IMG/VR virus record: IMGVR_UViG_2740892441_000001
DNA: 64,000 nucleotides
DNA from: a virus
Taxonomy: Duplodnaviria; Heunggongvirae; Uroviricota; Caudoviricetes
Strand: one strand, 5' to 3'
Below the pieces are notes generated by a model. It ran no database searches. It saw only the letters and a program-made list of their open reading frames with translations, and had not been told where the DNA came from. A program made the position numbers and the translations under genes. How positions within the stretch are numbered: the first letter of the stretch is position 1; every line of letters begins with the position of its first letter. Positions 2,854 to 63,263 of this stretch are shown here, one piece after another.

Positions 2854-4110
2854 CTATCGAGAACCACCAAGAATAACACGGTTTTTGACTGGATACCTAC
2901 GATGTACTGGATAGCCCAATGCGTCTGCACTATGCTCAATGCCACCTGTCTTATCCATATCTCGTGTTCCAGGCTTGTAGATGACCTTTTCCAGTGAATC
3001 AATCAAATGCTTGCACTTCGGATCGATATACAGCCGGATATCTCCAGATGCGGTCATCAGCATTCGGTTAACAGCATTAACACGATCCGCAATTGGCGGG
3101 TGCTTTTTCGAATAATCGACACGTAAGAATCCCTTCTCTTTGAATATGTCTACGTCAGACTCCCCGCGAGCATGTTGGCGATAAGCACCTGCCGGATCTG
3201 GAAATACCGTTATCTGTGATTTCCAGCGCCAGAAGCGCCTCTCAAGCTCATCACAAACCTCTGCCGTGTTAGAGGAAAAGAGCACCAATTCATCAATTGC
3301 CCATAGCTCACCATTTGGCTGAGGTTGCAAAATTACGGAAGACATCGGGTCAATGTTGAAGTCCTGTCCTACCCATATAGGCAACCGAGGGTTGAACTGA
3401 AGCGGTTTAACATGCACGTTTCGATCGAACGGGTAGTAAACGCGCCCGGACATATTTTCAAAGCTGGCCAGGTACTCCTGAGCGAACGATTTAGGGTCCA
3501 TATCGTTCTTAGCAGCTTCAATTTCCGCCGTAGGCACAAACGGCGAATCAGCAGTTACAAACTGCCAGCTCTTCCACTGTCCCTTTCTTTGCAGCTCTAC
3601 GTTCTGGCCTATAGTCCACAGTTTGTGAAATTCCGAGAAGCCTTTTGGCGTACCAATGATCAGTGCACCGCCGCGTGTCGATGAAAGAGTAGGTCGTAAC
3701 ACCTTGTACCAGGTGTCAGCCTTCATATCCTGAAATTCATCAAGCACTACAAAATGCAACGCTACGCCGCGCAGAGTGTCAGGTTTATCAGCACCTTTGA
3801 GGGCGATCTCCGAACCGTTCTTCAACACGATTGTCATCGTGGTGTCGTTCTTTTTCCTAACCCACTTACGGGGCAGAACTTCCTGTAGATCGTCCCACAA
3901 AATCTGGCGAGCCATCTGGTAAGTAGGAGCGACATACCAGACCCTTTGCTTTTTTTCCTTTGCCGCCGCACGAATAATAGTGGAGATCGACAACCGGGAT
4001 TTTCCCCAGCGTCGACCAGCACAAACAACTTTAAATCGATGCGGAGACTGGAAGACTTTCATCTGTCCAGAATGCAGTTGCACAAGACTGAGCGAGGACG
4101 GGATTGCCAT
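2854..4110 (-). CDS. terL: Terminase large subunit
   Basis: 418 aa; Walker A-like VVCAGRRWGKS, Walker B-like HFVVLDEFQD, C-terminal nuclease-like region with conserved acidic residues. Confidence 0.9.
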   Translation of the reverse strand: MAIPSSLSLVQLHSGQMKVFQSPHRFKVVCAGRRWGKSRLSISTIIRAAAKEKKQRVWYVAPTYQMARQILWDDLQEVLPRKWVRKKNDTTMTIVLKNGSEIALKGADKPDTLRGVALHFVVLDEFQDMKADTWYKVLRPTLSSTRGGALIIGTPKGFSEFHKLWTIGQNVELQRKGQWKSWQFVTADSPFVPTAEIEAAKNDMDPKSFAQEYLASFENMSGRVYYPFDRNVHVKPLQFNPRLPIWVGQDFNIDPMSSVILQPQPNGELWAIDELVLFSSNTAEVCDELERRFWRWKSQITVFPDPAGAYRQHARGESDVDIFKEKGFLRVDYSKKHPPIADRVNAVNRMLMTASGDIRLYIDPKCKHLIDSLEKVIYKPGTRDMDKTGGIEHSADALGYPVHRRYPVKNRVILGGSR

Positions 4111-4742
4111 TATTCGTCCTCCCCTTCACTTCCATCATCTGTCGCATCAAATTCGCTTAGAGCTTCTTCTTCCAACGTCTCAAGCAATTCGTCATCGATG
4201 ATTTCAGGCTCGTCGTCTTCCTGACGTAATTTCGCCACCTGGGAAGGCGTAAGCTCACCAAATACCAGGTTCGGAATTTCTTCCTCGTCATTTTCCGCAT
4301 GATCCATGCCCAATGCTTTGGACGAAACTTCAAAGCATTTTGCAAGGGTATTACTGGCTCTCTGTAAGCTCTTGAGAGAACCCTCAATCGCCCCTAAAGG
4401 CTTACCCTCACGTTTGGCCGTAGTGACTTCGACCATCACCATCTGCCCCAACGCATACGCCCAGCCGTCATAACGTGTACGACGTTCTTCTATCTTTTCC
4501 GCACGGGCTTTAGCGCGAAGCTCTGCGTCAGATTTAAGAGACTCACGAACCATCTTCCCAACAGAGTCCGCGCCTTTCTCTAATCCTCGCTTTTTGAAAT
4601 GTCTGGAGAGTGTTTCACGACGAATGCCGTACTCTTCCTCCAGCTTTGAGAGTGTATATTCGCCTGACGTCCATTTGGCTTCAGCTTCGGCCCACTCCGC
4701 TGGTGTCAGGCGAGTTTTTACCTCGTCTTTTTCGACAGTCAT
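4110..4742 (-). CDS. Putative terminase small subunit / DNA-binding packaging protein
   Basis: 210 aa immediately upstream of and overlapping terL start; N-terminal HTH-like segment, acidic C-terminus; GAGGGA RBS. Confidence 0.5.
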   Translation of the reverse strand: MTVEKDEVKTRLTPAEWAEAEAKWTSGEYTLSKLEEEYGIRRETLSRHFKKRGLEKGADSVGKMVRESLKSDAELRAKARAEKIEERRTRYDGWAYALGQMVMVEVTTAKREGKPLGAIEGSLKSLQRASNTLAKCFEVSSKALGMDHAENDEEEIPNLVFGELTPSQVAKLRQEDDEPEIIDDELLETLEEEALSEFDATDDGSEGEDE

Positions 4743-4838
4743 AGATCCCTCTAAAACACACAGAGCGCGTCCATGCGCTCTAAAACAACTTGTTTACTGC
4801 ATCTGCTAACCAACTTGTTTTCTGGTGTGTCTAATTAG

Positions 4839-4936
4839 GTCTGGGCATGTCTTACTAAGCCTGCTTCCGTATATATTTAATAAGTTACTTATTATTTATA
4901 TATACGGAAGCAGGTCTTTAAATAACGTCCCAGACC
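4839..4936. repeat. Long near-perfect palindrome (CCTGCTTCCGTATATAT ... ATATATACGGAAGCAGG) with outer GGTCTGGG/CCCAGACC arms
   Basis: Read directly; lies between stop of 4939-5205 gene and the terS promoter region; a second copy of the same arm sequence is at ~35979-36037. Confidence 0.7.
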
Positions 4937-4938
4937 GA

Positions 4939-5205
4939 TTACATCACCAGTAACTTCGCTTTGGCTCGACCTAAAGTGGTTAACCCAAGAGTCCGGCGGT
5001 GATAGCGATTGTCACTGCGTTGGCGCGTATGCCCTTTCTCCACCAGCCCCTTTTTTATCAGAGCGCGAATTGAGAACTGGATACTTTGCTTTGTTGTCTT
5101 GTACGGCAAAACTTCAAGCAATTCGTCCAGATCAAGTAGATGACCTCGCTCATAACCGAGATTGAGCGTTTTGATGATGTCCTTTTGTTTGTCGGTTAAC
5201 GTCAT
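4939..5205 (-). CDS. Small putative DNA-binding protein (winged-helix-like)
   Basis: 88 aa, basic C-terminus; first gene downstream of the 5215-8112 operon. Confidence 0.45.
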   Translation of the reverse strand: MTLTDKQKDIIKTLNLGYERGHLLDLDELLEVLPYKTTKQSIQFSIRALIKKGLVEKGHTRQRSDNRYHRRTLGLTTLGRAKAKLLVM

Positions 5206-5214
5206 GGCAAATCC

Positions 5215-6105
5215 TTATGCCGGTAAAGCAATTTCTAACGGTTTATCCAAAGGTTGTTTGTCGAATGCCAGCAGTGGCAGCGTGTCAGGCAGTCGACGAC
5301 CAAAGTCAGGGTTTCGATACACACCATACAACGGAGACGTAAAGCTCAGGTTGTGAATGTCCTTGAGCAGCTTCACAATGCTGGCCTCGTCCACCAGACT
5401 GTCGGCAATGTCCTGAATCGTCGTGCCACGATTCCGCCCAGCTTTTGCCAGGGAACTGTTCTTGTGGTAGTCCGCCACCAGATCACGCAGTGCACGGCGA
5501 CGACGTGACTCGCTCATTGCGAACAACTCTTTGACGATCGCCTCGTTATCACCCGGGTCGGAGCGGAAATGGCGCTGGAACACACGCAGTGCACTTTCAT
5601 AGCTCTTCGGTCGCTCAGGGCGGATGAACTTGAACCCTGCTTTCATGGCGAAGGGATTGTATTTGCTCATCGAGGATTGGATCTCAATGATTGGCCGGTC
5701 ATGCATCCTGCTAACCAGGTTAATCATTCGATAAGAGACGCCTACGCCACGGTACTGAGTATCCACAACTGAGCGGCTGATCACCGCAAAGTTGTTATTC
5801 ACGTACCGGCCCCAGTACTGGTTAGCCACGGTGGTATTGGTGGTTGGTTTCAACTTAGGAAACATGCGATGGCGAGGTGCCAGCAGAAGTTTCGGGTAAG
5901 CCATAACCACGACGCCCACCAGACGGTCATCCAGTTCGCAGCGATAGTATGTTGGCGCGAAAGGTTTGCCGTCTGTTTTGTAGTGAAGCGACTTAAGAGC
6001 GTGCCAGTCCTCTACAGTTCCCTTTGTGACAGTCATTCGCTCCAGAAAGTCCAGATGACGCGGAAACTCTTCAGGGCGGTAGCGTTTAATGATGATGTCC
6101 GTCAT
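5215..6105 (-). CDS. Hypothetical protein (possible acyltransferase-like fold)
   Basis: 296 aa; stop/start overlap with upstream ATPase gene implies operon; weak GNAT-like segment RCELDDRLVGVVVMAYP. Confidence 0.5.
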   Translation of the reverse strand: MTDIIIKRYRPEEFPRHLDFLERMTVTKGTVEDWHALKSLHYKTDGKPFAPTYYRCELDDRLVGVVVMAYPKLLLAPRHRMFPKLKPTTNTTVANQYWGRYVNNNFAVISRSVVDTQYRGVGVSYRMINLVSRMHDRPIIEIQSSMSKYNPFAMKAGFKFIRPERPKSYESALRVFQRHFRSDPGDNEAIVKELFAMSESRRRRALRDLVADYHKNSSLAKAGRNRGTTIQDIADSLVDEASIVKLLKDIHNLSFTSPLYGVYRNPDFGRRLPDTLPLLAFDKQPLDKPLEIALPA

Positions 6106-6767
6106 GAATGGACCTCATCATAACTACCATTGTGATATTCCACCTTCACGCGTTCTTTGTAGTGCTTGGTGATCTGCATATCCGGGCGCAGCGCGTTCTT
6201 CAGGTCTTCGTGAGTCGTCGCCACCATTACCGTCGCACCAACCTTTCGAGCGGCACGCTGGAGGTTAGATGCCACAACCTGAGCGGTTACACGGTCTAGA
6301 ACAGCACCGAACTCGTCAGCAGCCCACACTTTAGCGCCTGACTCAATCAGTTTGGCAATCTTGAGACGATATTTCTGACCGTCTGACATTTCAGAAGGCT
6401 TGCGAACAAACAGATATGCATCGTTCAGACCTGCCATAGATAACAACCCAAGCGCATCACTGGTAGTTTTGCCCAGTTGGTCAATGACGTTAACCTCATT
6501 ATCGAAGGTAAAGTCATCAATAGAAGCTACAGAAAGCCCTTCATCCTTCATCTGGCGTTGCAACTCGCGCAACACAACGGATTTACCTGAACCGGATTGG
6601 CCGGTGATGTACACCACATCGCCCTGCTTCACTTCCAGCTCCAGATTGTCGTAAAGCGTCCACTCTTTTTCGTCCAGGCCAAGCCCGAACGACTCAGCGA
6701 TTTCCAACGTGCGCGTGGTTTTATTTACGCGTGTCTGAAACGATACGTTGATGATGTATTTGCTCAT
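6102..6767 (-). CDS. ABC-type ATPase domain protein (soluble)
   Basis: Walker A GQSGSGKS, ABC-signature-like MSDGQKYRL, Walker B VWAADEFGAVLD, H-loop-like ATTHED. Confidence 0.65.
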   Translation of the reverse strand: MSKYIINVSFQTRVNKTTRTLEIAESFGLGLDEKEWTLYDNLELEVKQGDVVYITGQSGSGKSVVLRELQRQMKDEGLSVASIDDFTFDNEVNVIDQLGKTTSDALGLLSMAGLNDAYLFVRKPSEMSDGQKYRLKIAKLIESGAKVWAADEFGAVLDRVTAQVVASNLQRAARKVGATVMVATTHEDLKNALRPDMQITKHYKERVKVEYHNGSYDEVHS

Positions 6768-7432
6768 GCAGCCATCTCCCCGGAAGAGATCTTCTCCGCA
6801 TATGCCACAAATGCGTCTACCCCGCTTTCTCCCGTCATTTCTTCCATGTGGGCAAGCAAATCACCAACAACAATGGCAGAGCCAGCAGGGAGCGTTTTAA
6901 AGCCCAATACGTCGATAACACGTACTTCTTCCGCTGCAACTTCACGACTGATCTCGGTGTGTTCATCCTTCTGTCGTTTAGTTTCTTCGCCCAGATCGAT
7001 AACTAGCGAGTCGGTGTCCATTTCTTCTGTCATGCTGCCAACGAGAACATTCAACTCCCGCTCTTCAAAGCCGAAAACCTCGATATCGTCCAGAACAAGC
7101 GACTCAAGTTCTTTCTGTAGCTTAATTGCATCGTAATCAATGCTGGCAAGTCGGTTATCTTCAAGGCGCTTCGCACGAACCTCGTCATCACTGAGATCAT
7201 CGCGAACAATAACCGGTACGCGCTCAAGTCCAGCAAAAATTGCAGCCTCACGGCGGCCGTGGCCAGTAATAATTACGTCGTTCTTATCGACCGTAATTGG
7301 CTGGTCAAATCCGCGCTTTTTAATGGCTGCGGCCAGATCTCGGATCTGCTGTTCATCATGCTTTTTGGCATTCATCTCATAGGGAATAAGATCTGCCGGG
7401 TCGCGATATACGATTTCAAACTTTTTGGTCAT
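6764..7432 (-). CDS. ParB-like nuclease domain protein
   Basis: ParB N-terminal-like motif ITGHGRREAA...VPVIV; start set at MTKKFEIVY (ATG overlapping upstream stop). Confidence 0.6.
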   Translation of the reverse strand: MTKKFEIVYRDPADLIPYEMNAKKHDEQQIRDLAAAIKKRGFDQPITVDKNDVIITGHGRREAAIFAGLERVPVIVRDDLSDDEVRAKRLEDNRLASIDYDAIKLQKELESLVLDDIEVFGFEERELNVLVGSMTEEMDTDSLVIDLGEETKRQKDEHTEISREVAAEEVRVIDVLGFKTLPAGSAIVVGDLLAHMEEMTGESGVDAFVAYAEKISSGEMAA

Positions 7433-8112
7433 TACATACACTCCTTGTAGTAGTCGACCAGCCACACCAGAGCCTCACCAGCGTTCTCCATTTCATTACC
7501 GGTGTTAATAGCCTGCTCTTTGATGATGTTTTTTATGGTTTCTGCAACACGATCTGACGCATCGAAAGTTACTTTGAAGCGCATGGTCTGATGTTCCGCA
7601 CCCACACGTTCGGTTTTCTCTCGTTTGTCGGTATCGACAGGCTCATCACTACCACGAGACAACGCCTCCAGTGCTTCAAGGTCGATTGCCGCCTCTTTTG
7701 CTAAAACCATCGAGATTTCGTCGTCATACGGGGCGATTTCAGACAGTTGATAGTCAAGTTCTGACTGAATTTCTTCAATGAAGCGTTGCAATGCGATTTG
7801 GTCGTCTTCACCGTATCGCTCGTTGTCCACTAGTGACATCTGTTTAGCTACGACATCGCTAATTTTGCCCACAGAAAGCACCGGAACCGTTGAAATTCCT
7901 TGCTCAATAGCAGCACGCCAGCGATGTTCGCCGCCGAGGATTTCAAAAAATCCATCTTCAAGTTCACGAGCCAAAATTGGCTTAAAAAAGCCCAATTTTT
8001 CGATAGAACCTTTCAGTTTTTCAAAATTCTGCGCACCAACCGAATTGGTGTTCCAGGTATTCGGGCGAAGGTTGGCAACATCAACCTGCAAAATCGTGAT
8101 TTTTACATCCAT
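7432..8112 (-). CDS. ParB-like nuclease domain protein
   Basis: ParB/Srx signature FEILGGEHRWRAAIEQGISTVPV; first gene of the operon, divergent from helicase gene. Confidence 0.65.
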   Translation of the reverse strand: MDVKITILQVDVANLRPNTWNTNSVGAQNFEKLKGSIEKLGFFKPILARELEDGFFEILGGEHRWRAAIEQGISTVPVLSVGKISDVVAKQMSLVDNERYGEDDQIALQRFIEEIQSELDYQLSEIAPYDDEISMVLAKEAAIDLEALEALSRGSDEPVDTDKREKTERVGAEHQTMRFKVTFDASDRVAETIKNIIKEQAINTGNEMENAGEALVWLVDYYKECM

Positions 8113-8194
8113 TTTATTGCTACAATCAACTAAGTAATTACTTACTTATTATAATAGCCAAATAACATACAAAAGGCACTAAGGAAAGAGGTTT

Positions 8195-9754
8195 ATGACT
8201 GTTCGGATTGTATCTAACGCAGTAAATGCGCTTATTTCTGGCGCAGATGACAAGGTAAAGCAACTGGTGCAACAGATGTTGAGCTACGAAGTCGAGACTG
8301 GCGACTGGAAAGGCACAAGCACGATGTTCAACTGGAGTAAAAACTCGTTCCCTGCTGGCTTTGCCAAGCCTGTAGCGGCGAACTTGAACAAGGCGGGCAT
8401 CAAATGTGTTCATATCCGCAAAGACAAAGCCCCGGCGCTTGGAAAGCCAAATCCGGCGGTTAACCCATTCCCATACAATCCTGATTATGCGTATCAGGAT
8501 CAGACTGTGGAAACGCTAGTTCGCGAGGGAATGATGATTGCGCAGATCGCTACTGGTGGCGGAAAATCTAATGTTGCCTGCAAAGCAGCTGCACGTATCG
8601 GTCGAATGACATTATTTTTAACAACCCGCTCTGTTCTGATGTTTCAGATGGCCGAAAACTTCCAGAGATCCATCGACTACCGCGCCGAAAATGGCGAACC
8701 GTGGTTAAAAGACCAAAAGGTTGGAGTAATTGGCTCGGGTGAGTTCCAGGTATCGCGACATATCAACGTTGCTACAGTTCAAACTCTTGCAAGTTTCCTC
8801 GAAGAACCACCACGCGATGCAACACCAGATAAGAAAAGCTACCACCTCAAACGTCGGGAGTTGGTGAAACGCTTCCTTTCAAGTGTCTCTCTTCTTATTC
8901 TGGAAGAGGCGCATGAGTCTTCAGGCTCTAATTTCTATGACATTGCCAGATTATGTGCGAACGCAGACTATCGCCTGGCGCTTACGGCAACGCCGTTCAT
9001 GAAGGATTCTACGGAAGCCAACATGCGTCTGATGGCTGTGGCCGGGCGAATTGAAATAAAAGTCACGGAAAAGTACCTGATTGATAAAGGCATTCTGGCA
9101 AAGCCATACTTCCTTTATCATAAAGTTGCCTACAAACCGGACGAGGTCAGAATCAAGGCAGAACTTGCTAACAAACACCTCAATTTTAGAGTAGGTATGA
9201 GCACTGCCTACCAAAAGGCTTATCAGTTGGGGATCGTGTATAATTTGGGACGTAACGAGGCCATTGTGCGCGAAGCATTGCTCTATAAGCAACACTCTCT
9301 CAACTGCATGACTCTGGTTCGTCTTAAACGCCACGGGCAAATCCTGATGGAGATGATGAAGGAGTCCGGTCTTAGAGTTGACTTCATCTATGGGGAATCG
9401 AACCAGGCGACAAGGCAAGCAAAGCTGAACAGTTTAGCGTCTGGTGAAATAGATGTTTTAATAGGCTCGACTATTCTGGATGTCGGTGTTGATGTGCCAA
9501 GCGTTGGTGCGGTCATTCTTGCTGGTGGCGGGAAAGCAGAAGTTGAAATGAGACAACGTGTCGGTCGTGGCTTACGAGCCAAGAAGAATCAGGCAAACGT
9601 GTGTTTTATCACTGATTTCATTGACATTAGCAACAAATACCTGTTGTCTCACTCTTATGAGCGAAAACACATCATCGACACTACACCTGGCTTTGCAGAA
9701 GGTGTATTGCCTATTGATGGCGCATTCGATTTTGGAGTTCTGAAACGAGATTAG
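8195..9754 (+). CDS. Superfamily-2 DEAD/DEAH-box helicase
   Basis: Motif I IATGGGKSN, motif II ILEEAHE, motif III LALTATP, motif VI RQRVGRGLRA; RBS AAGGAAAGAGG. Confidence 0.8.
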   Translation: MTVRIVSNAVNALISGADDKVKQLVQQMLSYEVETGDWKGTSTMFNWSKNSFPAGFAKPVAANLNKAGIKCVHIRKDKAPALGKPNPAVNPFPYNPDYAYQDQTVETLVREGMMIAQIATGGGKSNVACKAAARIGRMTLFLTTRSVLMFQMAENFQRSIDYRAENGEPWLKDQKVGVIGSGEFQVSRHINVATVQTLASFLEEPPRDATPDKKSYHLKRRELVKRFLSSVSLLILEEAHESSGSNFYDIARLCANADYRLALTATPFMKDSTEANMRLMAVAGRIEIKVTEKYLIDKGILAKPYFLYHKVAYKPDEVRIKAELANKHLNFRVGMSTAYQKAYQLGIVYNLGRNEAIVREALLYKQHSLNCMTLVRLKRHGQILMEMMKESGLRVDFIYGESNQATRQAKLNSLASGEIDVLIGSTILDVGVDVPSVGAVILAGGGKAEVEMRQRVGRGLRAKKNQANVCFITDFIDISNKYLLSHSYERKHIIDTTPGFAEGVLPIDGAFDFGVLKRD

Positions 9755-9756
9755 TT

Positions 9757-10035
9757 ATGAGCGAAAAGAAAACAACTTATTGTCAGGTAGCATTGACTGA
9801 TAAGGCCAATGACAAACTGGGAAAATTTCAAATGAAACTAAAAGAAAAAAACATCAAAATGTCCAAGGCTGAAGTTATCAATACCATTCTGGAGACGATG
9901 ACGATGGCTGAATTTGACAAGGTTTCATCTGCCGTTGGCGTCTCTGCTAAGGCTCGTGAAAAAATCATGCGCATCTATGAGAACTCTAATATGACAAAGG
10001 AAGACCTAGAACAAATTCTAAGCAAACTGCCATAA
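9757..10035 (+). CDS. Hypothetical small protein, coupled to helicase
   Basis: 92 aa ORF starting 2 nt after helicase stop. Confidence 0.5.
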   Translation: MSEKKTTYCQVALTDKANDKLGKFQMKLKEKNIKMSKAEVINTILETMTMAEFDKVSSAVGVSAKAREKIMRIYENSNMTKEDLEQILSKLP

Positions 10036-10177
10036 CATTTCACATTCCCTCCATCCGCCAATTCCAAGATGTGCTTACTTGTAAAAGGAGCACATCAATT
10101 GATGTGGCAGAGAATGAATTTAATCAAGACAAACATTGAATGATTAATAGACTACGATAGTGTCCAACAGGGCATTC

Positions 10178-10200
10178 TCATGTGACATTTGTCACATTTT
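10178..10200 (+). terminator. Rho-independent terminator-like hairpin (CATGTGACA..TGTCACATTTTT)
   Basis: Perfect inverted repeat followed by T-run, downstream of 9757-10035. Confidence 0.5.
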
Positions 10201-10287
10201 TAACCGCATAAGTCTCCGGCTGAAAAAAGTTCTTGATTGGCTGAATGATATTTGTAGGCTTATCAATGTTTAGAGCCGGAGGTGTGA

Positions 10288-10830
10288 ATGGGTGTACTTG
10301 ACATTGATAGTAATTACTTAAGTGCAAGGCGAATAAAGGAATGTGTTCATATCTATTGTAAATCAAAGCAGTCTTGTTTAGAAAAGCAGGCGTACCTAAC
10401 ATCTTCTCAAAAAGGAGAGCACAAACTCATCAAATATAAACTAAAGGCTTCGCGCAAAGATCGTTATGAGCACTATATATATGTAAAGGATATTGAAGGC
10501 ACCAAGACAAATTGCGGTATTATCTTTTATCCCTATGATATATCAAGACTGTTCTCCATTATGAAATCCTGTGTCGGCGTAGCTCCAGGTAAATTAGAGT
10601 TGCATTCAAACTTATACGATTACCCAAATGCTCAAAAACAGATAAACGATAGCACTTCGCCCTATGGATTTTCGTTTCTCTTTAAGAATCATCTCGCATT
10701 GAAAGATTTCATCGAAAAATACAATGAAGGAATAATATCAGGCGAATTAAATTTCAACAAAATCTGCGGAGATATAAAAAGGGACGACCTCTTAATAGAT
10801 ATTTACAATAGAATCCAAGTTAACGTGTAA
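10288..10830 (+). CDS. Hypothetical protein (low-GC accessory gene)
   Basis: 180 aa ORF, AT-rich codon usage distinct from neighbours. Confidence 0.5.
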   Translation: MGVLDIDSNYLSARRIKECVHIYCKSKQSCLEKQAYLTSSQKGEHKLIKYKLKASRKDRYEHYIYVKDIEGTKTNCGIIFYPYDISRLFSIMKSCVGVAPGKLELHSNLYDYPNAQKQINDSTSPYGFSFLFKNHLALKDFIEKYNEGIISGELNFNKICGDIKRDDLLIDIYNRIQVNV

Positions 10831-10857
10831 CCATCCATTAATCATAGCCAGACAAAT

Positions 10858-11277
10858 ATGAAAGTAACAAACCTAATTATTCTGACACTAGCCACATCAC
10901 TAATTGGGTGTTCATCTTCATCTATATCTGTTTCAAAGGCAAAGTATGCGCCTCAAAGCAGAATATTTAAATATCAAACACCACATGAGTCTAGTCTAAC
11001 AATAGTTAGAGACAAAGGGCTGGTTGGTTCTGGATGTAACGCTTCCATATTCATCAATGGAGAAACGGCAGCAAAATTGGAACCTGGTGAAAAAGCAACT
11101 TTCTATCTTAATGAAGGAGATTGGATCGTTGGGACATCAATTGAAAGTTCAGGTCTTTGCGCATTTAACCCCTCTAGGATGGAGCGAGAAATAAAACTAA
11201 AGCAAGGCGACGCGAAAACATATCGGGTTTTCACTACCTGGGATGGTACAATGGATATATTGCCAACCACTTTATAA
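10858..11277 (+). CDS. Putative lipoprotein
   Basis: N-terminal signal peptide MKVTNLIILTLATSLIGCSSS with lipobox LIGC. Confidence 0.6.
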   Translation: MKVTNLIILTLATSLIGCSSSSISVSKAKYAPQSRIFKYQTPHESSLTIVRDKGLVGSGCNASIFINGETAAKLEPGEKATFYLNEGDWIVGTSIESSGLCAFNPSRMEREIKLKQGDAKTYRVFTTWDGTMDILPTTL

Positions 11278-11806
11278 TGATATGACGACGAAAGACATCA
11301 CCTACGGTGTGCCAGCAGAAGTCTGGCCTCGAGATTACACTAACGTTGAAAAACTACTGATGTTCTGGCGCAGAGAACAAATTCCTGTAAGGGCCACTCT
11401 AGAAGATGGCCAGGCGTTTTGCATGTACGTTTATGGCCTCATGCCATCTCGTAACAAAGTTGACCTTTGCCCAGCCCCTTTTGACAAAGAAAATCGTATA
11501 AGGCTCCCACTTGAACGCATTAGTACAATTGAATCAGGTGTGGTTGACAGTATCGCTCACGATTTCAAAGGTCGATTAACAGTTCACCCTGATTATGTCG
11601 ATAATCGGCCATCACGCCGCGATTTTTTTGCTATTTGCAACCAAGCCTATAAAGCAAACAAATCTATAAGGGTGTACATGGCGGATGGCCGTGAAATTGA
11701 GGGGGTGTCAGCAGGCGCAGATGCTTGTCAGGTTACACTACGTGTCGAGAACGGTAGAAAAATAGTTATTTTGTTCGATTGGGTTGAACGAATTTTGCCT
11801 TTTTGA
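11243..11806 (+). CDS. Hypothetical protein
   Basis: 187 aa ORF; true start may be the internal Met at ~11281. Confidence 0.45.
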   Translation: MVQWIYCQPLYNDMTTKDITYGVPAEVWPRDYTNVEKLLMFWRREQIPVRATLEDGQAFCMYVYGLMPSRNKVDLCPAPFDKENRIRLPLERISTIESGVVDSIAHDFKGRLTVHPDYVDNRPSRRDFFAICNQAYKANKSIRVYMADGREIEGVSAGADACQVTLRVENGRKIVILFDWVERILPF

Positions 11807-11809
11807 GTT

Positions 11810-12118
11810 ATGAAATCGATATTGTTACCACCATTATTTTTACTTTGCTCAGTTGCAGCAAATGCAATGGACTATAAGCCTGTCATTCAGTCGCTGATGA
11901 ATGACGTGTGCTCAACGTCTCAGAATGTATCAGTTTGCATGTATCAATTTTCGGCAGCCGTAAAAGCAGGAAAAGCGATAGGTGAGAATGTGGAACTGTG
12001 TAAGAAAGTGGCAAATGAAGAACGAGCAATGTTGGATTGCGAATCTAGCGAGTCATCGGCACAGTTCGTTGATGCGCTATTTGACACCAATCGTAAGGCT
12101 GTAGAGTCTGTCCAATAA
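11810..12118 (+). CDS. Small secreted protein
   Basis: Signal peptide MKSILLPPLFLLCSVAANA; 102 aa. Confidence 0.55.
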   Translation: MKSILLPPLFLLCSVAANAMDYKPVIQSLMNDVCSTSQNVSVCMYQFSAAVKAGKAIGENVELCKKVANEERAMLDCESSESSAQFVDALFDTNRKAVESVQ

Positions 12119-12337
12119 ATCTATAAGGTTAATAACCGGCTAAGTCCGGTTATTATTTTTCACATCACTTCTTTATATCTATAAATCAAACAACCTAAAT
12201 ATATAAGGTCGAAAGCCGGAATCGATTATTTATTTAGGGAACACCTTCGACGATCTCGCTTTTATTTCTAGGACTTTCATCCCTGCAAAAAAATTTAAAA
12301 AAACACTTGCAATCTTTTTTCGCGTATCGATAATTGA

Positions 12338-12399
12338 ACTCGTCGAAAGCGAAGATGCTAACGACAATAAATTTTAAATTTACATAAGGAAAAATTATC
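12338..12399 (+). promoter_or_regulatory. Sigma70-like promoter (TTGCAA - 17 nt - GATAAT) for 12400-13050
   Basis: Hexamers read directly upstream of RBS AAGGAAAAA. Confidence 0.5.
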
Positions 12400-13050
12400 A
12401 TGGCTAACATTATCATTTCTAAAAAATCCATCATTGAAGCTGCTTCCATTGTATCCGACGAGCTGCGCGAAAAAGCAGATCTGGCAACTCAAACATATAA
12501 CGAACATTATAAAAATGGTACGCACACTAAAGCAGACAAAGCAAATATGCAAGCTGCGACCACTAAACTTGCTTACTTCATCAACAACGTTGTAAACGCT
12601 GTTGAAGACGAAAAATTATGCTCTGTTTTCTACTATGCGATTAAAGCAAGCAAACAAGCGCCAGAAGTATTTTTCCGTGATGCAATGACTAATAGTTATT
12701 CACTGGAAAAACTGGTTTATCTGGTTAAATCTATTAAAGCTGGTAAATGCGTTTATTCCGTCGCTGATATGTCAGGATCTCGTGTATTCGCTTTAATCGA
12801 TATGATTAACGACGAGATCGACACGTTCACCAATGGCGCTGTTTTCGATTTAATGAATGAAGCTAAAAAAGCGTGTGAGATTAAATTGGACGCTGGCTAT
12901 ACTCAAGCCAACCAGTTGATCAATCTTTGCGAACGTCTCGGACTTGTTGAAAAAGTCAAAGGAGCTGGGAGCGCAAAAGCTGGTACTCAGCAATATCGCT
13001 TTATCAAGAATGATTTCTACAATTATCTAGCTGATGCTTTCAAAGCGTAA
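12400..13050 (+). CDS. Hypothetical protein
   Basis: 216 aa ORF with good RBS and own promoter; hairpin GCGCCCACTATGGGCGC at 13064-13080 downstream. Confidence 0.6.
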   Translation: MANIIISKKSIIEAASIVSDELREKADLATQTYNEHYKNGTHTKADKANMQAATTKLAYFINNVVNAVEDEKLCSVFYYAIKASKQAPEVFFRDAMTNSYSLEKLVYLVKSIKAGKCVYSVADMSGSRVFALIDMINDEIDTFTNGAVFDLMNEAKKACEIKLDAGYTQANQLINLCERLGLVEKVKGAGSAKAGTQQYRFIKNDFYNYLADAFKA

Positions 13051-13097
13051 TTAATGGAATCAAGCGCCCACTATGGGCGCTTTAAAGGAGCTTTAAA

Positions 13098-13301
13098 ATG
13101 GTCAGCTATGACAAGATCCGCGCGGAATATCGCGCAAAGTATCGCGCTTACAAACTGGAATTAATCGATGATTTGATCGCGCAACGCGACCAATTAAATT
13201 TTACGTTTTCTGATTTGCTTAACAGCAAGCGAGATTGCAAGCGCAAACGTGAATATTTACGTTTAAGCGCATTAATCGGAAAACTTCAAAATTCTATTTA
13301 A
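13098..13301 (+). CDS. Hypothetical small protein
   Basis: 67 aa, RBS AAAGGAG upstream. Confidence 0.5.
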   Translation: MVSYDKIRAEYRAKYRAYKLELIDDLIAQRDQLNFTFSDLLNSKRDCKRKREYLRLSALIGKLQNSI

Positions 13302-13321
13302 TTTTTTTAAGGAGCTTAATC

Positions 13322-13549
13322 ATGTTTGTTCTTATCGCTGGCGTTAACGTCCACAATGAATATTGTGTTAATGATATTGCTGGGATCGCTGGTTACGCTG
13401 GATCTGTTGAGCTTATAGATGAAACGACGCGCAAAATTGACTTATTGAGCGACCAGGAGCGAAAAAAAGCAGACGTGAACGACGCTGATATATTTTTAAT
13501 GTTAAAAGCGTTTGTAGAAATGGGATTTGAAATCAGTTTACATAAATAA
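13322..13549 (+). CDS. Hypothetical small protein
   Basis: 75 aa, RBS AAGGAG upstream. Confidence 0.5.
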   Translation: MFVLIAGVNVHNEYCVNDIAGIAGYAGSVELIDETTRKIDLLSDQERKKADVNDADIFLMLKAFVEMGFEISLHK

Positions 13550-13553
13550 AATC

Positions 13554-13578
13554 GAGCGCCCACTATGGGCGCTTTTTT
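13554..13578 (+). terminator. Rho-independent terminator (GAGCGCCCACTATGGGCGC + TTTTTT)
   Basis: GC-rich hairpin followed by T6; same stem as hairpin at 13064-13080. Confidence 0.8.
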
Positions 13579-13601
13579 CGTTTCCAATACTCCCACCATA
13601 A

Positions 13602-13628
13602 CGCGCCATCATTGGCGCGTTTTTTATT
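13602..13628 (+). terminator. Second tandem rho-independent terminator (CGCGCCATCATTGGCGCG + TTTTTTATT)
   Basis: Hairpin plus T-run read directly. Confidence 0.75.
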
Positions 13629-14029
13629 GTCTTTAACTCACTCCAACAACATAAAAATAAGCGCCAAAATAACGCCATAGACGCGATTTTATATCCTCGC
13701 CAGTACATACCCATTACTTAACACATTAACGCGCTTAAAACGCGTTATATTGCGCTATAGAGTATGGTTAATCGTTGGCTTTTAGTCTTGCTTTATGATC
13801 CGCGTTTATTTGTCGGCGCGGATCGGCATTTTGTTTTGTTCCGTATCCGCTCGCGTATTATGTGCGCGTGATTTTTCACATAATCACACCACTTAATCAC
13901 GTATGTGATTATGCTACGAAAGAAATCTGGATGTCTCAGGCGACGAAAGTCATCATAATTTTCCCCGCTCACCTGTCCGACAACCGCTGGTTGGATTCAA
14001 CCAGCTTCCCGATGTTTTTTCTATATAAA

Positions 14030-16820: not shown

Positions 16821-16973
16821 CACAACTCCGTAAACAACTTGTTTTCTCAATGGCGTAAATAATACCAGTAAGAAAACGGCTACAAAGCATATTGATCAGG
16901 TGCATGAGCGATATGCAGGTTCTTCCCTGCGGCTATAGAGAAATTAAGCCAGCAATGCTGGCTTTGGTTGGGG

Positions 16974-20271: not shown

Positions 20272-22305
20272 TTACTTAACCTGGTGGCCAGGTTTAGCAC
20301 CAGCATCCGGGCTTAACAGGAAGATGTCTTTCCCGCCGGGGCCAGCAGCCATCACCATGCCTTCGGAGATACCGAAACGCATTTTACGCGGAGCCAGGTT
20401 AGCCACCATAATGGTGTGACGGCCAATCAGTGCCTGTGGGTCTGGATAAGCGGAACGGATGCCTGAGAAGACATTGCGTTTTTCACCGCCGAGATCCAGC
20501 GTCAGGCGCAGCAGTTTGTCAGAACCTTCAACAAAGTCTGCGTTTTCGATCAGCGCCACGCGCAGGTCAACTTTGGCAAAGTCGTCAAAGGTGATGGTTT
20601 CCTGAATCGGGTCGTCTGCCAGCGGGCCAGTAACTGGCGCGGCAGTAGCTTTCACTTCTTCTTTAGACGCTTCCACCAATGCTTCCACCTGTTTCATGTC
20701 GATACGGTTATACAGTGCTTTGAACGGATTCACTTTATGGCCCAGCAGCGGTTGCTGGATACCATCCCAGGTCAGTTCTGTATTCAGGAATGCTTCTGCA
20801 CGTTCAGTCAGTTTCGGCAGTACCGGCTTCAGGTACGTCATCAGCACGCGGAACAGGTTAATGCCCATAGAGCAAATCGCCTGCAGATCGGCATCGCGTC
20901 CTTCCTGCTTCGCCACCACCCACGGAGCCTGTTCATCGACATAGCGGTTAGCCAGGTCAGCCAATGCCATGATTTCACGGATAGCTTTACCAAATTCGCG
21001 GCTTTCCCATGCTTCGCCAATCACTTCAGCGGCATCAGTAAAGGTTTTGTACAGTTGCGAGTCAGCCAGTTCGCTTGCCAGCACGCCGTCAAAACGCTTG
21101 TTGATAAAGCCTGCATTACGGGAGGCCAGGTTAACCACTTTGTTCACGATATCGGCATTCACGCGCTGAACGAAATCCTCCAGGTTGAGATCGATATCAT
21201 CAATGCGCGAAGAGAGTTTCGCAGTGTAGTAGTAACGCAGGCTGTCGGCGTCAAAATGATTCATCCAGGTGCTGGCTTTAATAAAGGTGCCGCGAGACTT
21301 GGACATCTTCGCGCCGTTCACCGTCACATAGCCGTGAACAAACAGGTTGGTCGGCTTGCGGAAGTTGCTGCCTTCCAGCATGGCAGGCCAGAACAGGCTG
21401 TGGAAGTAAACGATATCTTTACCGATGAAGTGGTACAGCTCGGCGGTGGAGTCTTTCTTCCAGTATTCATCGAAGCTGGTAGTGTCGCCGCGCTTGTCGC
21501 ACAGATTCTTGAAGGAACCCATGTAGCCAATCGGTGCGTCCAGCCAGACGTAGAAATATTTACCCGGCGCGTTCGGAATTTCAAAACCGAAGTAAGGTGC
21601 GTCGCGGGAGATATCCCACTGTTGCAGACCAGATTCAAACCACTCCTGCATTTTGTTTGCCACCTGCTCCTGCAACGCACCGCTGCGGGTCCATGCCTGC
21701 AACATTTCGCTGAAAGAGGGCAGATCAAAGAAGAAGTGTTCAGAATCACGCATTACCGGCGTAGCGCCAGAAACTACCGATTTCGGCTCAATCAGTTCAG
21801 TCGGGCTGTAGGTCGCGCCGCAAACTTCACAGTTATCGCCGTATTGATCTGGCGCTTTACATTTCGGACAGGTGCCTTTCACAAAACGATCCGGCAGGAA
21901 CATGCCTTTTTCCGGGTCGTACAACTGAGAGATAGTGCGGTTTTTAATAAAACCGTTCTCTTTCAGGCGAGTATAGATAAGCTCAGACAGCTGGCGGTTC
22001 TCTTCGCTGTGCGTCGAGTGATAGTTGTCATAGCTGATGTTAAAGCCTGCGAAATCAGTCTGGTGTTCCTGGCTCATTTCGCCAATCATCTGTTCCGGTG
22101 TGATACCAAGCTGCTGTGCTTTCAGCATGATCGGCGTACCGTGGGCATCGTCGGCGCAGATGAAGTTGACCTCGTGGCCGCGCATTCGCTGGTAACGGAC
22201 CCAGACATCAGCCTGGATGTGCTCCAGCATATGGCCGAGGTGGATTGAGCCGTTAGCGTACGGCAGCGCGCACGTCACCAGAATTTTCTTCGCGACTTGG
22301 GTCAT
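20272..22305 (-). CDS. metG: Methionine--tRNA ligase (methionyl-tRNA synthetase), enterobacterial type
   Basis: 677 aa from [26 protein letters not shown]... with HIGH (HLGH) and KMSKS motifs; recalled as near-identical to E. coli MetG; start reassigned to 22305. Confidence 0.97.
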
Positions 22306-22462
22306 AGTAGGCATTACTTCTTTGTAGTGAAAAGGGGCTTGATAGTAACAAAATGGCCTTATGTCTGCCATGTGATAACAGCATTTCTCATAAATGATTA
22401 AATGTCGTAGCTGGAGTACACTACAAGGCGACAATTGCGCAAATTAAAATAAAGGAGACGGG

Positions 22463-23563
22463 ATGAGCGAGTCCAAATCGCCGGATGCCCTGAGAGCAAT
22501 GGTAGCCGGTACGCTGGCTAATTTTCAGCACCCAACCCTGAAGCACAACCTGACTACGCTTAAAGCGTTACACCATGTTGCGTTGATGGATGACACACTG
22601 CATGTCGAACTAATCATGCCTTTCGTGTGGAATAAGCCTTTTGAAGACCTGAAAGAGCAATGTAGTGGTGATCTGCTCCGTATCACTGGCGCAAAGGCTA
22701 TCGACTGGAAGCTGTCGTACAACATTGCCACGCTTAAGCGCGTCAAAAACCAACCAGGCATTAATGGCGTTAAGAACATCATCGCCGTCAGCTCAGGCAA
22801 GGGCGGTGTAGGCAAATCGTCCACAGCAGTAAACTTGGCACTGGCGTTGGCTGCTGAAGGTGCGAAAGTTGGTATTTTGGATGCCGATATCTACGGTCCA
22901 TCAATTCCAACCATGCTGGGTGCGGAAAACCAACGTCCAACCTCACCGGACGGTACTCACATGGCACCTATCATGTCTCATGGCCTGGCAACCAACTCTA
23001 TTGGTTATCTGGTCACCGACGACAATGCAATGGTGTGGCGTGGACCGATGGCCAGCAAGGCGTTAATGCAGATGTTGCAGGAAACTCTATGGCCTGATCT
23101 GGACTATCTCGTTCTCGATATGCCGCCGGGCACTGGTGATATTCAATTGACGCTGGCGCAGAACATTCCTGTAACTGGTGCTGTTGTGGTAACTACGCCG
23201 CAAGATATCGCGCTGATCGATGCGAAGAAAGGCATTGTGATGTTCGAAAAAGTCGAAGTGCCGGTACTGGGTATCGTCGAAAACATGAGTGTGCATATTT
23301 GCAGTAACTGCGGTCATCACGAGCCAATTTTTGGCACCGGTGGCGCACAGAAGCTGGCCGAGAAATACAACACGCAGTTGTTAGGCCAAATGCCACTTCA
23401 TATCTCTCTTCGTGAAGATCTGGATAACGGAACACCAACCGTTATTAGTCGTCCAGATAGCGAATTTACGGCTATTTATCGTGACCTCGCAGATCGCGTT
23501 GCTGCCCAAATGTATTGGCAAGGTGAAGTAATACCTGGCGAAATCGCATTCCGCGCAGTGTGA
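22463..23563 (+). CDS. apbC: Iron-sulfur cluster carrier protein ApbC/Mrp (P-loop ATPase)
   Basis: 366 aa; deviant Walker A SGKGGVGKSS and CxxC motif (CSNCGH); divergent from metG with enterobacterial-type intergenic region. Confidence 0.95.
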   Translation: MSESKSPDALRAMVAGTLANFQHPTLKHNLTTLKALHHVALMDDTLHVELIMPFVWNKPFEDLKEQCSGDLLRITGAKAIDWKLSYNIATLKRVKNQPGINGVKNIIAVSSGKGGVGKSSTAVNLALALAAEGAKVGILDADIYGPSIPTMLGAENQRPTSPDGTHMAPIMSHGLATNSIGYLVTDDNAMVWRGPMASKALMQMLQETLWPDLDYLVLDMPPGTGDIQLTLAQNIPVTGAVVVTTPQDIALIDAKKGIVMFEKVEVPVLGIVENMSVHICSNCGHHEPIFGTGGAQKLAEKYNTQLLGQMPLHISLREDLDNGTPTVISRPDSEFTAIYRDLADRVAAQMYWQGEVIPGEIAFRAV

Positions 23564-24028: not shown

Positions 24029-24120
24029 TACATGAAAGAAACCCACTTAGTGCAACCGATCGAGACTCTTCACCAAACAAAAATATTTTTCTCAAATAAG
24101 AAAAGGCAGAAAACAAATTG

Positions 24121-63146: not shown

Positions 63147-63263
63147 GTGTTTCTCCTTGTTGTGATTTGGCCGATGGCGCTATGCGCGTTGGGCTTTCGT
63201 TCATTCGTGGCTCTTTCGAGCTGTTAAATGATAGATCAGTACTTACTTATTATCTATCAAAAA

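Follow-up and report, generated by a model that had tools for sequence, protein, structure and literature searches.

Enzymes in which an ATPase is coupled to a GNAT acyltransferase domain are known from RNA modification, where TmcA and NAT10 make N4-acetylcytidine. In DNA, the GNAT protein Mom of phage Mu (PDB 8bv8) carries out a glycyl-tRNA-dependent N6 modification of adenine in double-stranded molecules; its residues H58, Y59, and R111 are functionally important, and its donor and acceptor are, according to its authors, not readable from sequence (PMC13219725). ParB-fold proteins have also been linked to DNA-modifying enzymes. ParB-methyltransferase fusions and pairs occur in phages (PHROG 498; a survey of ParB-CTPase/N6_N4_Mtase fusions is given in PMC12704722), and a phage ParB homologue is needed to activate an adjacent thymine dioxygenase (5mYOX) in post-replicative DNA modification, the ParB-5mYOX clusters being often located near terminase genes (PMC13229309). 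Here we analysed a five-gene operon at positions 4939-8112 of a 64,000-nt stretch of tailed-virus DNA (IMG/VR record IMGVR_UViG_2740892441_000001; the whole stretch is called the window), encoding two ParB-like proteins, an ABC-type ATPase, a 296-aa protein predicted by structural modelling to be a GNAT-fold acyltransferase, and an 88-aa putative DNA-binding protein. We tentatively propose that the operon carries out, during the lytic cycle, a ParB-assisted and ATP-dependent acyl modification of phage DNA before packaging; our confidence in this proposal stops a little short of the halfway mark because no modified base is known and because the acceptors of GNAT enzymes are unreadable from structure.

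The window is part of an SSU5-type phage-plasmid, as deduced from the identity of positions 4000-9000 to E. coli plasmid pEC00678_4 (NZ_OP378623.1; 100%), to the phage-plasmids Cyrano, CMS-2020a, and PhiR41_1 (97-98%), to Salmonella phage SSU5 (84.5%), and to Klebsiella phage-plasmids (about 80%). The stretch matched 793 plasmid records, among them 307 from Klebsiella, 237 from Escherichia, 92 from Enterobacter, 62 from Yersinia, and 49 from Salmonella, as well as 12 phage records. These matches, together with PHROG profile hits for all five operon proteins (E = 1e-45 to 1e-165), indicate that the operon genes are real and not chance open reading frames (ORFs). All five were recovered on the minus strand, over the span that an earlier note on this DNA had given for them. 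Its description of the genes as translationally coupled through stop/start overlaps held for three of the four junctions, with a 1-nt overlap (TAATG) between the two ParB genes and 4-nt overlaps (ATGA) at both the ParB-2/ABC and the ABC/296-aa junctions; the last junction, between the genes for the 296-aa and 88-aa proteins, is a 9-nt gap with an AAGGA Shine-Dalgarno sequence, and the coupling was slightly overstated also because relatives have genes inserted between ABC and GNAT. The operon is co-oriented with the terS and terL genes that it adjoins, and it may still be called uncharacterised, as it was in that note: a literature search covering SSU5, COG2401, terminase-linked, and Nickievirus contexts found neither a study nor a published function of the module. 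Its genes are known and widespread, yet unstudied and mislabelled, the existing labels "ABC transporter", "partition protein", and "DNA methyltransferase" being misleading.

The 221-aa ATPase (6767-6102, minus strand) matched Pfam ABC_tran (PF00005) with 50.1 bits, against a cut-off of 25, and presented a Walker A motif (GQSGSGKS), an ABC signature (MSDGQKYR, with SDGQ as core), a Walker B motif (VWAADEF, with AADE), and an H-loop (TTHED). The SDGQ signature, the H-loop histidine, and the ABC_tran match identify it as ABC-type and not ParA-type, in agreement with what had been noted before. It is a soluble protein consisting of the nucleotide-binding domain only, and carries a family-specific N-terminal motif (SFxT..T.R...AE.FGLG) conserved in alignment A2. 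A sequence search with this protein returned only relatives that were at least 85% identical.

The 296-aa protein (6105-5215, minus strand) had been listed without any identity in the earlier note; the gene is real, and the GNAT assignment that was missed there changes the picture of the operon. Sequence searches against Pfam, NCBIfam, PADLOC, and PDB gave no match, and the identity came via structure prediction alone. From 32 aligned homologues, the most distant of them 41% identical, an AlphaFold2 model was obtained with a mean predicted local distance difference test (pLDDT) score of 86.6, and structure search with this model identified a GNAT-fold acyltransferase with a helical insertion of roughly 90 aa between helix alpha4 and strand beta6, ahead of the last strands. 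Motif A reads R119-G-V-G-V-S124 and is accompanied by a motif-B-like NPFAMKAGF, the invariant residues including W34, H41-Y42, R78, R111, and E141. The top Foldseek matches in PDB were agmatine and polyamine N-acetyltransferases, with TmcA, Mom, and NAT10 all within the top 14; among predicted viral structures the best match was Mom (E = 2e-5).

A profile of the 296-aa protein searched against 1.84 billion cluster representatives retrieved 892 relatives, and every relative of at least 400 aa (63 of 63) carried an ABC domain N-terminal to the GNAT domain, from which it follows that ABC and GNAT form one unit. The motifs FGLG, HY(K/R), and NPF were common to the window proteins and the fusions. 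On these sequence comparisons, the two window genes are a split form of the ABC-GNAT fusions of COG2401 (MK0520 type, "ABC-type ATPase fused to predicted acetyltransferase domain"), which belong to the same family according to JGI/GenBank names and profile matches; COG2401 members are fused, whereas the window version consists of two genes overlapping by ATGA. A literature search on the term COG2401 found no paper. The Pfam models Acetyltransf_1, Acetyltransf_7, and Acetyltransf_10 matched 14-16 of 20 fusions, mostly below cut-off, and motif A of the fusions reads R-G-I-G-L-G. Since these classical GNAT models match the fusions, an acyl-coenzyme A (acyl-CoA) donor is the default expectation.

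ParB-1 (226 aa; 8112-7432, minus strand) and ParB-2 (222 aa; 7432-6764, minus strand) both exceeded the curated cut-off of Pfam ParB_N (PF02195; 26.3 bits), with 50 bits (E = 3e-13) and 35 bits (E = 1.5e-8), and matched PHROG 723 (E = 1e-78) and PHROG 930 (E = 8e-113), respectively. The start of ParB-2 was placed at the ATG, and not at the GTG at 7465, on account of RefSeq and of a PHROG match starting at residue 12. Both proteins are paralogues, with 33% identity over the N domain (BLASTP E = 4e-10). ParB-1 aligned to Spo0J (PDB 1vz0; E = 3e-9) over residues 7-154, that is, the N domain and part of the helical DNA-binding domain; its box II is GEHRWRAA, with the Glu kept, and its box III DNER, box II of ParB-2 being GHGRREAA, with His in place of Glu. 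G61, R64, and N97 (Gly and Arg of box II, Asn of box III) did not vary among the ParB proteins, the ParB part of the triple fusions described below included. The presence of two tandem ParB/Srx-fold proteins, as first noticed from the sequence, was therefore corroborated by the ParB_N cut-off, the box II G-x-x-R, and the box III Asn. The closest profile relatives of ParB-2 were the ParB domains of ParB-methyltransferase fusions, with matches to PHROG 498 "DNA methyltransferase" (E = 5e-32, profile positions 29-179) and PADLOC MTase_II (E = 3e-17).

Five cluster representatives were single chains of the type ParB_N - Zn ribbon - ABC - GNAT, which matches the gene order of the window, and three IMG/VR loci encoded ParB-ABC-GNAT triple fusions. 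Such fusions imply that the parts work together and that ParB belongs to the ABC-GNAT unit. With a triple fusion as query, 43 IMG/VR loci were obtained. At least 20 of them presented a ParB gene (about 180 aa) and an ABC gene (about 227 aa) followed by TerL and portal, with a small GNAT of 108-144 aa where detected and sometimes a TerS-like protein too; the small GNAT of locus L203 passed the cut-offs of Pfam Acetyltransf_7 and Acetyltransf_1. In 10 IMG/VR loci the ParB just before TerL instead had a C5 cytosine DNA methylase after it or formed one protein with an N6_N4 DNA methylase. The ParB subfamily common to both locus types was mostly 47-84% identical (range 35-88%). This alternation of ABC-GNAT and DNA methyltransferases behind one kind of ParB is the strongest argument for ABC-GNAT acting on DNA, and it agrees with the nature of the best profile relatives of ParB-2.

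Compared with the ParB-methyltransferase systems, the window operon has the same ParB_N subfamily, the match of ParB-2 being to the ParB part of the PHROG 498 fusions, and the same place directly upstream of the terminase genes, whereas its partner is an ABC ATPase plus a GNAT protein instead of an S-adenosylmethionine-dependent methyltransferase; moreover, it adds two ParB paralogues and a winged-helix protein. ParB-assisted modification modules are those in which ParB_N is encoded with an enzyme or fused to it, and here ParB_N was found next to the enzyme genes in the window and fused to the enzyme in the triple fusions. The ParB-5mYOX clusters rely on an iron/2-oxoglutarate dioxygenase, in contrast with the ATPase-coupled GNAT of the window, for which the dependence on ParB is deduced from fusion and synteny. 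In its architecture the operon joins the ParB-assisted modification modules of phage DNA, a class that is now emerging, and contributes a type of enzyme, the ABC-coupled GNAT, for which no link to DNA had been made before.

The last gene of the operon (5205-4939, minus strand) encodes the 88-aa protein, which matched PHROG 900 (E = 2e-45), has orthologues in loci L001 and L002, and keeps its position in distant relatives. The earlier note had called it a small DNA-binding protein. It is probably a winged-helix DNA-binding protein; winged-helix matches agree with that label, and these matches, which are weak (NCBIfam Sta1/Lrs14, E about 3e-3; PADLOC CARF wHTH, 4.5e-5), constitute its sole basis together with a MarR-like "GLVEK...R...LT..G" pattern.

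In the mechanism that we propose, the ABC ATPase and the GNAT protein would act as one ATP-dependent acyltransferase, a split enzyme of the COG2401 type, and the two ParB/Srx-fold proteins would be nucleoside triphosphate (NTP)-dependent DNA clamps or activators bringing this acyltransferase onto phage DNA, the small winged-helix protein giving site recognition or regulation. The ParB proteins, possibly as a heterodimer, would load near a cos-like palindrome at the end of the operon and travel along replicated phage DNA; the ABC dimer would close on ATP and present the DNA to the GNAT domain, which would put an acyl group on a base. Because motif A is kept, the most likely donor would be acetyl-CoA or another acyl-CoA. 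The DNA would be modified just before the neighbouring terminase packages it, and would therefore be protected from restriction in the next host. DNA as acceptor, the donor, the loading site, the timing, and the anti-restriction benefit are each what we infer from the comparisons made here.

These steps are plausible because of three precedents, namely the ParB-activated thymine dioxygenases, Mom, and TmcA/NAT10. By analogy, TmcA and NAT10 may be likened to the proposed enzyme in that an ATPase and a GNAT domain together acylate an exocyclic base amine of low nucleophilicity; they differ in their helicase-like ATPase, their RNA substrate, and the lack of a ParB partner and of a viral context. 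Mom and the window protein both present a GNAT fold with an extra late helical insertion, a conserved W...HY motif, and an Arg that opens strand beta4, and a correspondence made by eye between H41/Y42/R111/S124 and H58/Y59/R111/S124 of Mom provides a lead. Mom is located at the virion genome end, as is probably the window operon (see the cos reading below); Mom is known to act late, whereas the lateness of the operon is proposed. Mom lost the CoA-binding loop and works alone, in contrast with the window family, which has retained R-x-x-G-x-G/S and has an ABC ATPase and ParB as partners.

Several points weigh against an acyl modification of DNA. A literature search for a modified base in SSU5-type virion DNA found no report, the adjacency to terminase genes fits a packaging role equally well, and the expression basis for lytic timing is silence in lysogeny (see below) and not lytic-cycle data. 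The last position of motif A in the window protein is Ser where Gly or Ala is usual, and no Pfam GNAT model passed for this protein. Polyamine and agmatine N-acetyltransferases and Naa10 scored as well as Mom, and the structure searches, made with a predicted model, do not tell GNATs acting on nucleic acids apart from those whose substrates are small molecules or proteins. The archaeal ABC-GNAT loci mostly lacked a detectable ParB, and some lacked an adjacent TerL. Finally, membership of the Mom family was rejected: PF25680 matched neither the window protein nor 20 fused relatives, and the profile-profile link given by hhalign was weak at best (E = 0.0018, 15% probability) and not significant with profile A1 of the GNAT protein.

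The proposal has a wider form, which we consider unlikely: an unrecognised DNA hypermodification pathway in SSU5-type phage-plasmids (of Yersinia, Salmonella, Klebsiella, and E. coli) and in many tailed viruses of bacteria and archaea, in which an ABC-driven GNAT acylates, and for example acetylates, bases of double-stranded DNA, delivered by ParB clamps loaded at or near cos in such a way that the mark is confined to DNA bound for packaging. Were it true, Mom would be joined by another family of GNAT DNA acyltransferases, the second known and one of distinct mechanism, which would also be the first case of a DNA-modifying enzyme coupled to an ABC ATPase. The module is a conserved core feature of a very common phage-plasmid family, and planctomycete and archaeal viruses have related units. 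A role in DNA modification would mean that phage anti-restriction includes an enzyme architecture and a chemistry, ATP-dependent acyl transfer, that are both new; it would widen the recently discovered partnership between ParB-fold proteins and DNA-modifying enzymes, and would account in part for the host range of elements by which resistance genes are spread. Whichever function applies, the patterns of fusion and replacement lead to a concrete hypothesis, testable with the cultivable phages SSU5, Cyrano, and nickie.

The gene neighbourhoods bear on this proposal and on its closest rival. Analysis of gene neighbourhoods, a kind of search that the earlier note had suggested, found that the ABC-GNAT unit recurs beside TerL in proteobacterial, planctomycete, and archaeal viruses. 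A first scan of viral contigs with the GNAT-protein profile retrieved near-identical SSU5-like loci only, and the use of distant fusions as queries extended the range. Relatives with 40-45% identity kept the order helicase (divergent in the window), ParB, ParB, ABC, inserted genes, GNAT, winged-helix protein, TerS-like protein, TerL, and portal; this full order was present in an element that is integrated next to flagellar motor genes of a 3.27-Mb contig, in an Ectothiorhodospira element, in Pseudomonas phage nickie, and in Rhizobium phage RHEph10. The module lies in the conserved core beside structural genes, and the phage clade spans Enterobacterales, Pseudomonas, Rhizobium, and Stenotrophomonas. 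Of about 34 loci from Bathyarchaeia and other Thermoproteota, at least 18 had TerL (Terminase_6N plus 6C) upstream of an ABC-GNAT fusion; the two genes mostly abutted or overlapped, and were separated by one to a few small ORFs in L096, L119, and L131. In Planctomycetota the order was a helix-turn-helix (HTH) protein like sigma-70 region 4 or Q, followed by ABC, GNAT, ParB, TerS-like protein, and TerL.

Such arrangements would also suit an accessory of packaging initiation, in which the ParB proteins, bound at cos or close to it, organise concatemers or mark them for the terminase, and ABC-GNAT regulates this by acetylating a protein partner, which may be the portal, TerS, ParB, or a nucleoid protein of the host, the DNA being left unmodified. 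We judge this explanation improbable. In its favour, the unit adjoins TerS/TerL in three distant virus lineages, ParB, ABC, and GNAT hold the position expected for the small terminase in many IMG/VR contigs, the operon ends at a conserved cos-like palindrome whose centre shares a 10-mer, TAATAAGTAA, with the operon control region, and most GNATs acetylate proteins or small amines. However, a separate gene for a TerS-like HTH protein stands between the module and TerL in the SSU5-like, the planctomycete, and several IMG/VR loci, there are archaeal ABC-GNAT loci without an adjacent TerL, and the pairing of the same ParB subfamily with bona fide DNA methyltransferases at the same position points to DNA chemistry and away from a structural part in packaging. 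If packaging were the function instead, an enzyme-regulated step of terminase action that is so far unknown would be revealed. Among the roles offered in the earlier note, DNA modification and packaging initiation are those favoured by the new evidence.

The palindrome in question is a 99-nt imperfect one with an AT-rich centre, located at 4838-4936 between the 88-aa gene and terS, and consists of 39-nt arms and an inner AT-rich palindrome of 16 nt. As folded DNA it reached -28 kcal/mol (z = -8.8 against shuffled sequence). The GenBank records of SSU5 and Cyrano break inside it, at window position about 4877/4878, and palindromes unrelated in sequence occur at the equivalent place in RHEph10, L001, L002, and nickie. 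From these sequence features it is probably the cos region, and it may be where the ParB or winged-helix proteins load. Read as cos, it would place the operon at one physical end of the virion DNA, across cos from terS. The 10-mer TAATAAGTAA occurred in three copies in the window (0.13 expected): at 4885-4894, in the centre of the palindrome; at 8142-8151, 30 nt ahead of the ParB-1 ATG, where a short palindrome encloses it; and at 63243-63252, about 100 nt upstream of a gene for a 342-aa "regulator". In SSU5, copies with one mismatch were present at both places flanking the operon, one of them being the last bases of its record. The second window copy is in the divergent control region between ParB-1 and a UvsW-like helicase gene (8113-8194), where a consensus scan for a sigma-70 promoter found none.

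A role in host takeover or anti-defence seems to us quite improbable. In it, ABC-GNAT would acetylate a host protein, a polyamine, or a signalling molecule, and the ParB/Srx proteins would be nucleases or NTPases directed against host DNA or defences. The prominence of agmatine and polyamine N-acetyltransferases among the structural matches would fit, as would the tolerance of the ABC-GNAT interval to insertions and the accessory genes found within the module in relatives, including one for a DUF2829 protein in RHEph10; DUF2829 is the family of the anti-Thoeris protein Tad2. Some ParB/Srx domains, furthermore, act as nucleases or NTPases, and such domains occur frequently in conflict systems (PMC12704722). 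Yet PADLOC gave no system-level match, the module belongs to the conserved core beside structural genes and not to a variable accessory island, and both the fusion to a DNA clamp and the exchange with DNA methyltransferases argue for an activity directed at DNA. As for a known defence or anti-defence system, which was rejected, the PADLOC matches were generic P-loop and MTase-ParB ones only (including mad3/mad8) and uninformative.

Finally, a non-canonical plasmid partition system, with the two ParB proteins as centromere binders and the ABC ATPase as motor, is highly improbable and was dropped from the roles offered in the earlier note. What speaks for it is that the ParB_N domains conserve box II and box III residues, that the element is a low-copy phage-plasmid, and that SSU5 "parB" is used as a typing marker in one preprint. 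The operon is, however, silent in the plasmid or lysogenic state, as read from Cyrano, a 98%-identical relative and not the window element itself: in RNA-seq of its LF82 lysogen (S1 Table of PMC9928086) the orthologues CYRAN_119-123 read 5.0, 9.5, 9.2, 8.0, and 7.8, at or below background (prophage median 9.8), compared to 46 for the UvsW helicase, 91.7 for a ParA-family gene elsewhere, and 148 for an S24 peptidase. The module is also present in the relative integrated in the 3.27-Mb contig, in phages deposited as linear genomes, and in archaeal proviruses, and its ATPase is fused to an acyltransferase in relatives. By the Pfam match, ParB_N begins at residue 9 of ParB-1 and at about residue 23 of ParB-2, and neither protein carries a ParA-stimulating peptide of the LG(R/K)GL type ahead of it; no ParA gene (deviant Walker A) is adjacent to parB, the adjoining ATPase being ABC_tran. 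A ParA/MipZ-type ATPase with a small downstream partner gene is encoded about 30 kb away on the plasmid, outside the window.

Classical partition is effectively excluded by the same observations, which bears out the earlier judgement that the genes do not form a classical ParAB pair. The operon resembles the type I ParABS systems (P1, F, Spo0J/Soj) in its ParB_N domains with box II and box III and in the alignment of ParB-1 to Spo0J over about 150 residues; unlike them, it has no adjacent ParA and no ParA-contact peptide, is not expressed in the plasmid state, and is linked to an acyltransferase and a terminase. With respect to candidate parS sites, TAATAAGTAA flanks the operon at both ends and a second motif, the palindromic 11-mer AACAANTTGTT, is over-represented in the window; neither was tied to the ParB proteins.

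AACAANTTGTT had 10 exact copies in the window against 0.2 expected, at positions 4784, 14670, 16833, 20125, 20176, 24112, 32835, 33564, 44554, and 57304. Most were located about 6-45 nt upstream of minus-strand ORF starts, including those of terS and nrdB; the exceptions were the copy at 24112, which is 122 nt upstream, and that at 16833, which overlaps a called TTG start. This motif may be a phage-specific operator or promoter element. Just upstream of terS, on the minus strand, two copies of AACAAGTTG(T/G)T (4784-4794 and 4809-4819) are accompanied by a terminator-like G+C hairpin (4782-4761), and a related ACAAGTTGTT pair was present at the same place upstream of terS in Pseudomonas phage nickie.

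Downstream of the operon are the genes for the TerS-like HTH protein (4742-4110, minus strand; PHROG 867), the large terminase TerL (4110-2854, minus strand; Pfam Terminase_6N/6C, with 37 bits for 6N against a cut-off of 22, and PHROG matches), and the portal; the PHROG families matched in the TerS-like/TerL region (2854-4742) were 867, 10250, and 2. Upstream of the operon, and divergent from it, is the UvsW-like helicase gene.

Variation was also observed among the relatives of the module. The junction between ABC and GNAT was an insertion hotspot, occupied by small ORFs, a DUF2829 protein, Phage_gp49_66, or RyR-domain proteins; the inserts lie at 1235-1489 in SSU5 (L168), 2294-2845 in pJN2-26 (L214), 5893-6395 in RHEph10 (L167), 8961-9999 in L002, and 7730-10480 in L130. 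One planctomycete locus carried an inserted gene for a 916-aa protein that by eye is like a type IIG restriction-modification enzyme. In several Planctomycetota genomes (L122, L115, L116, L121-L125) the cassette (HTH, ABC, GNAT, ParB, TerS-like) was followed by ordinary cellular genes, for example for a sulfatase, and not by TerL; such loci may be prophages in decay, or the cassette may exist there without a terminase. Among a set of ABC-GNAT relatives (P0282, P0302, P0327, P0274, and L180-L182), some had their ABC domain interrupted by an intein with a LAGLIDADG domain and some ended in a C-terminal TFIIB repeat. In viral contigs, some ABC-GNAT were found at the C-terminus of a family B DNA polymerase of 1260-1310 aa, which are candidate fusions or a run-through of gene calling.

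Elsewhere in the window, positions 10000-14000 had a G+C content of 0.39, as compared to about 0.47 in the rest, with plus-strand ORFs without recognised function; this block looks like recently acquired cargo. The window differed by about 1 kb from the otherwise identical pEC00678_4, somewhere in 9-19 kb. At about 20272-23563 it carries, divergently oriented, a host-like metG (methionyl-tRNA synthetase) and apbC/mrp (ParA-family Fe-S carrier ATPase), a pair that looks like a captured copy of adjacent genes on the E. coli chromosome, where the two are arranged in the same way. Orthologues of both occur in Cyrano. The element's metG was considered as the source of an aminoacyl-tRNA donor and set aside, the metG and apbC orthologues being transcribed in Cyrano lysogeny (16 for CYRAN_100 and 92 for CYRAN_99, with the prophage median at 9.8).

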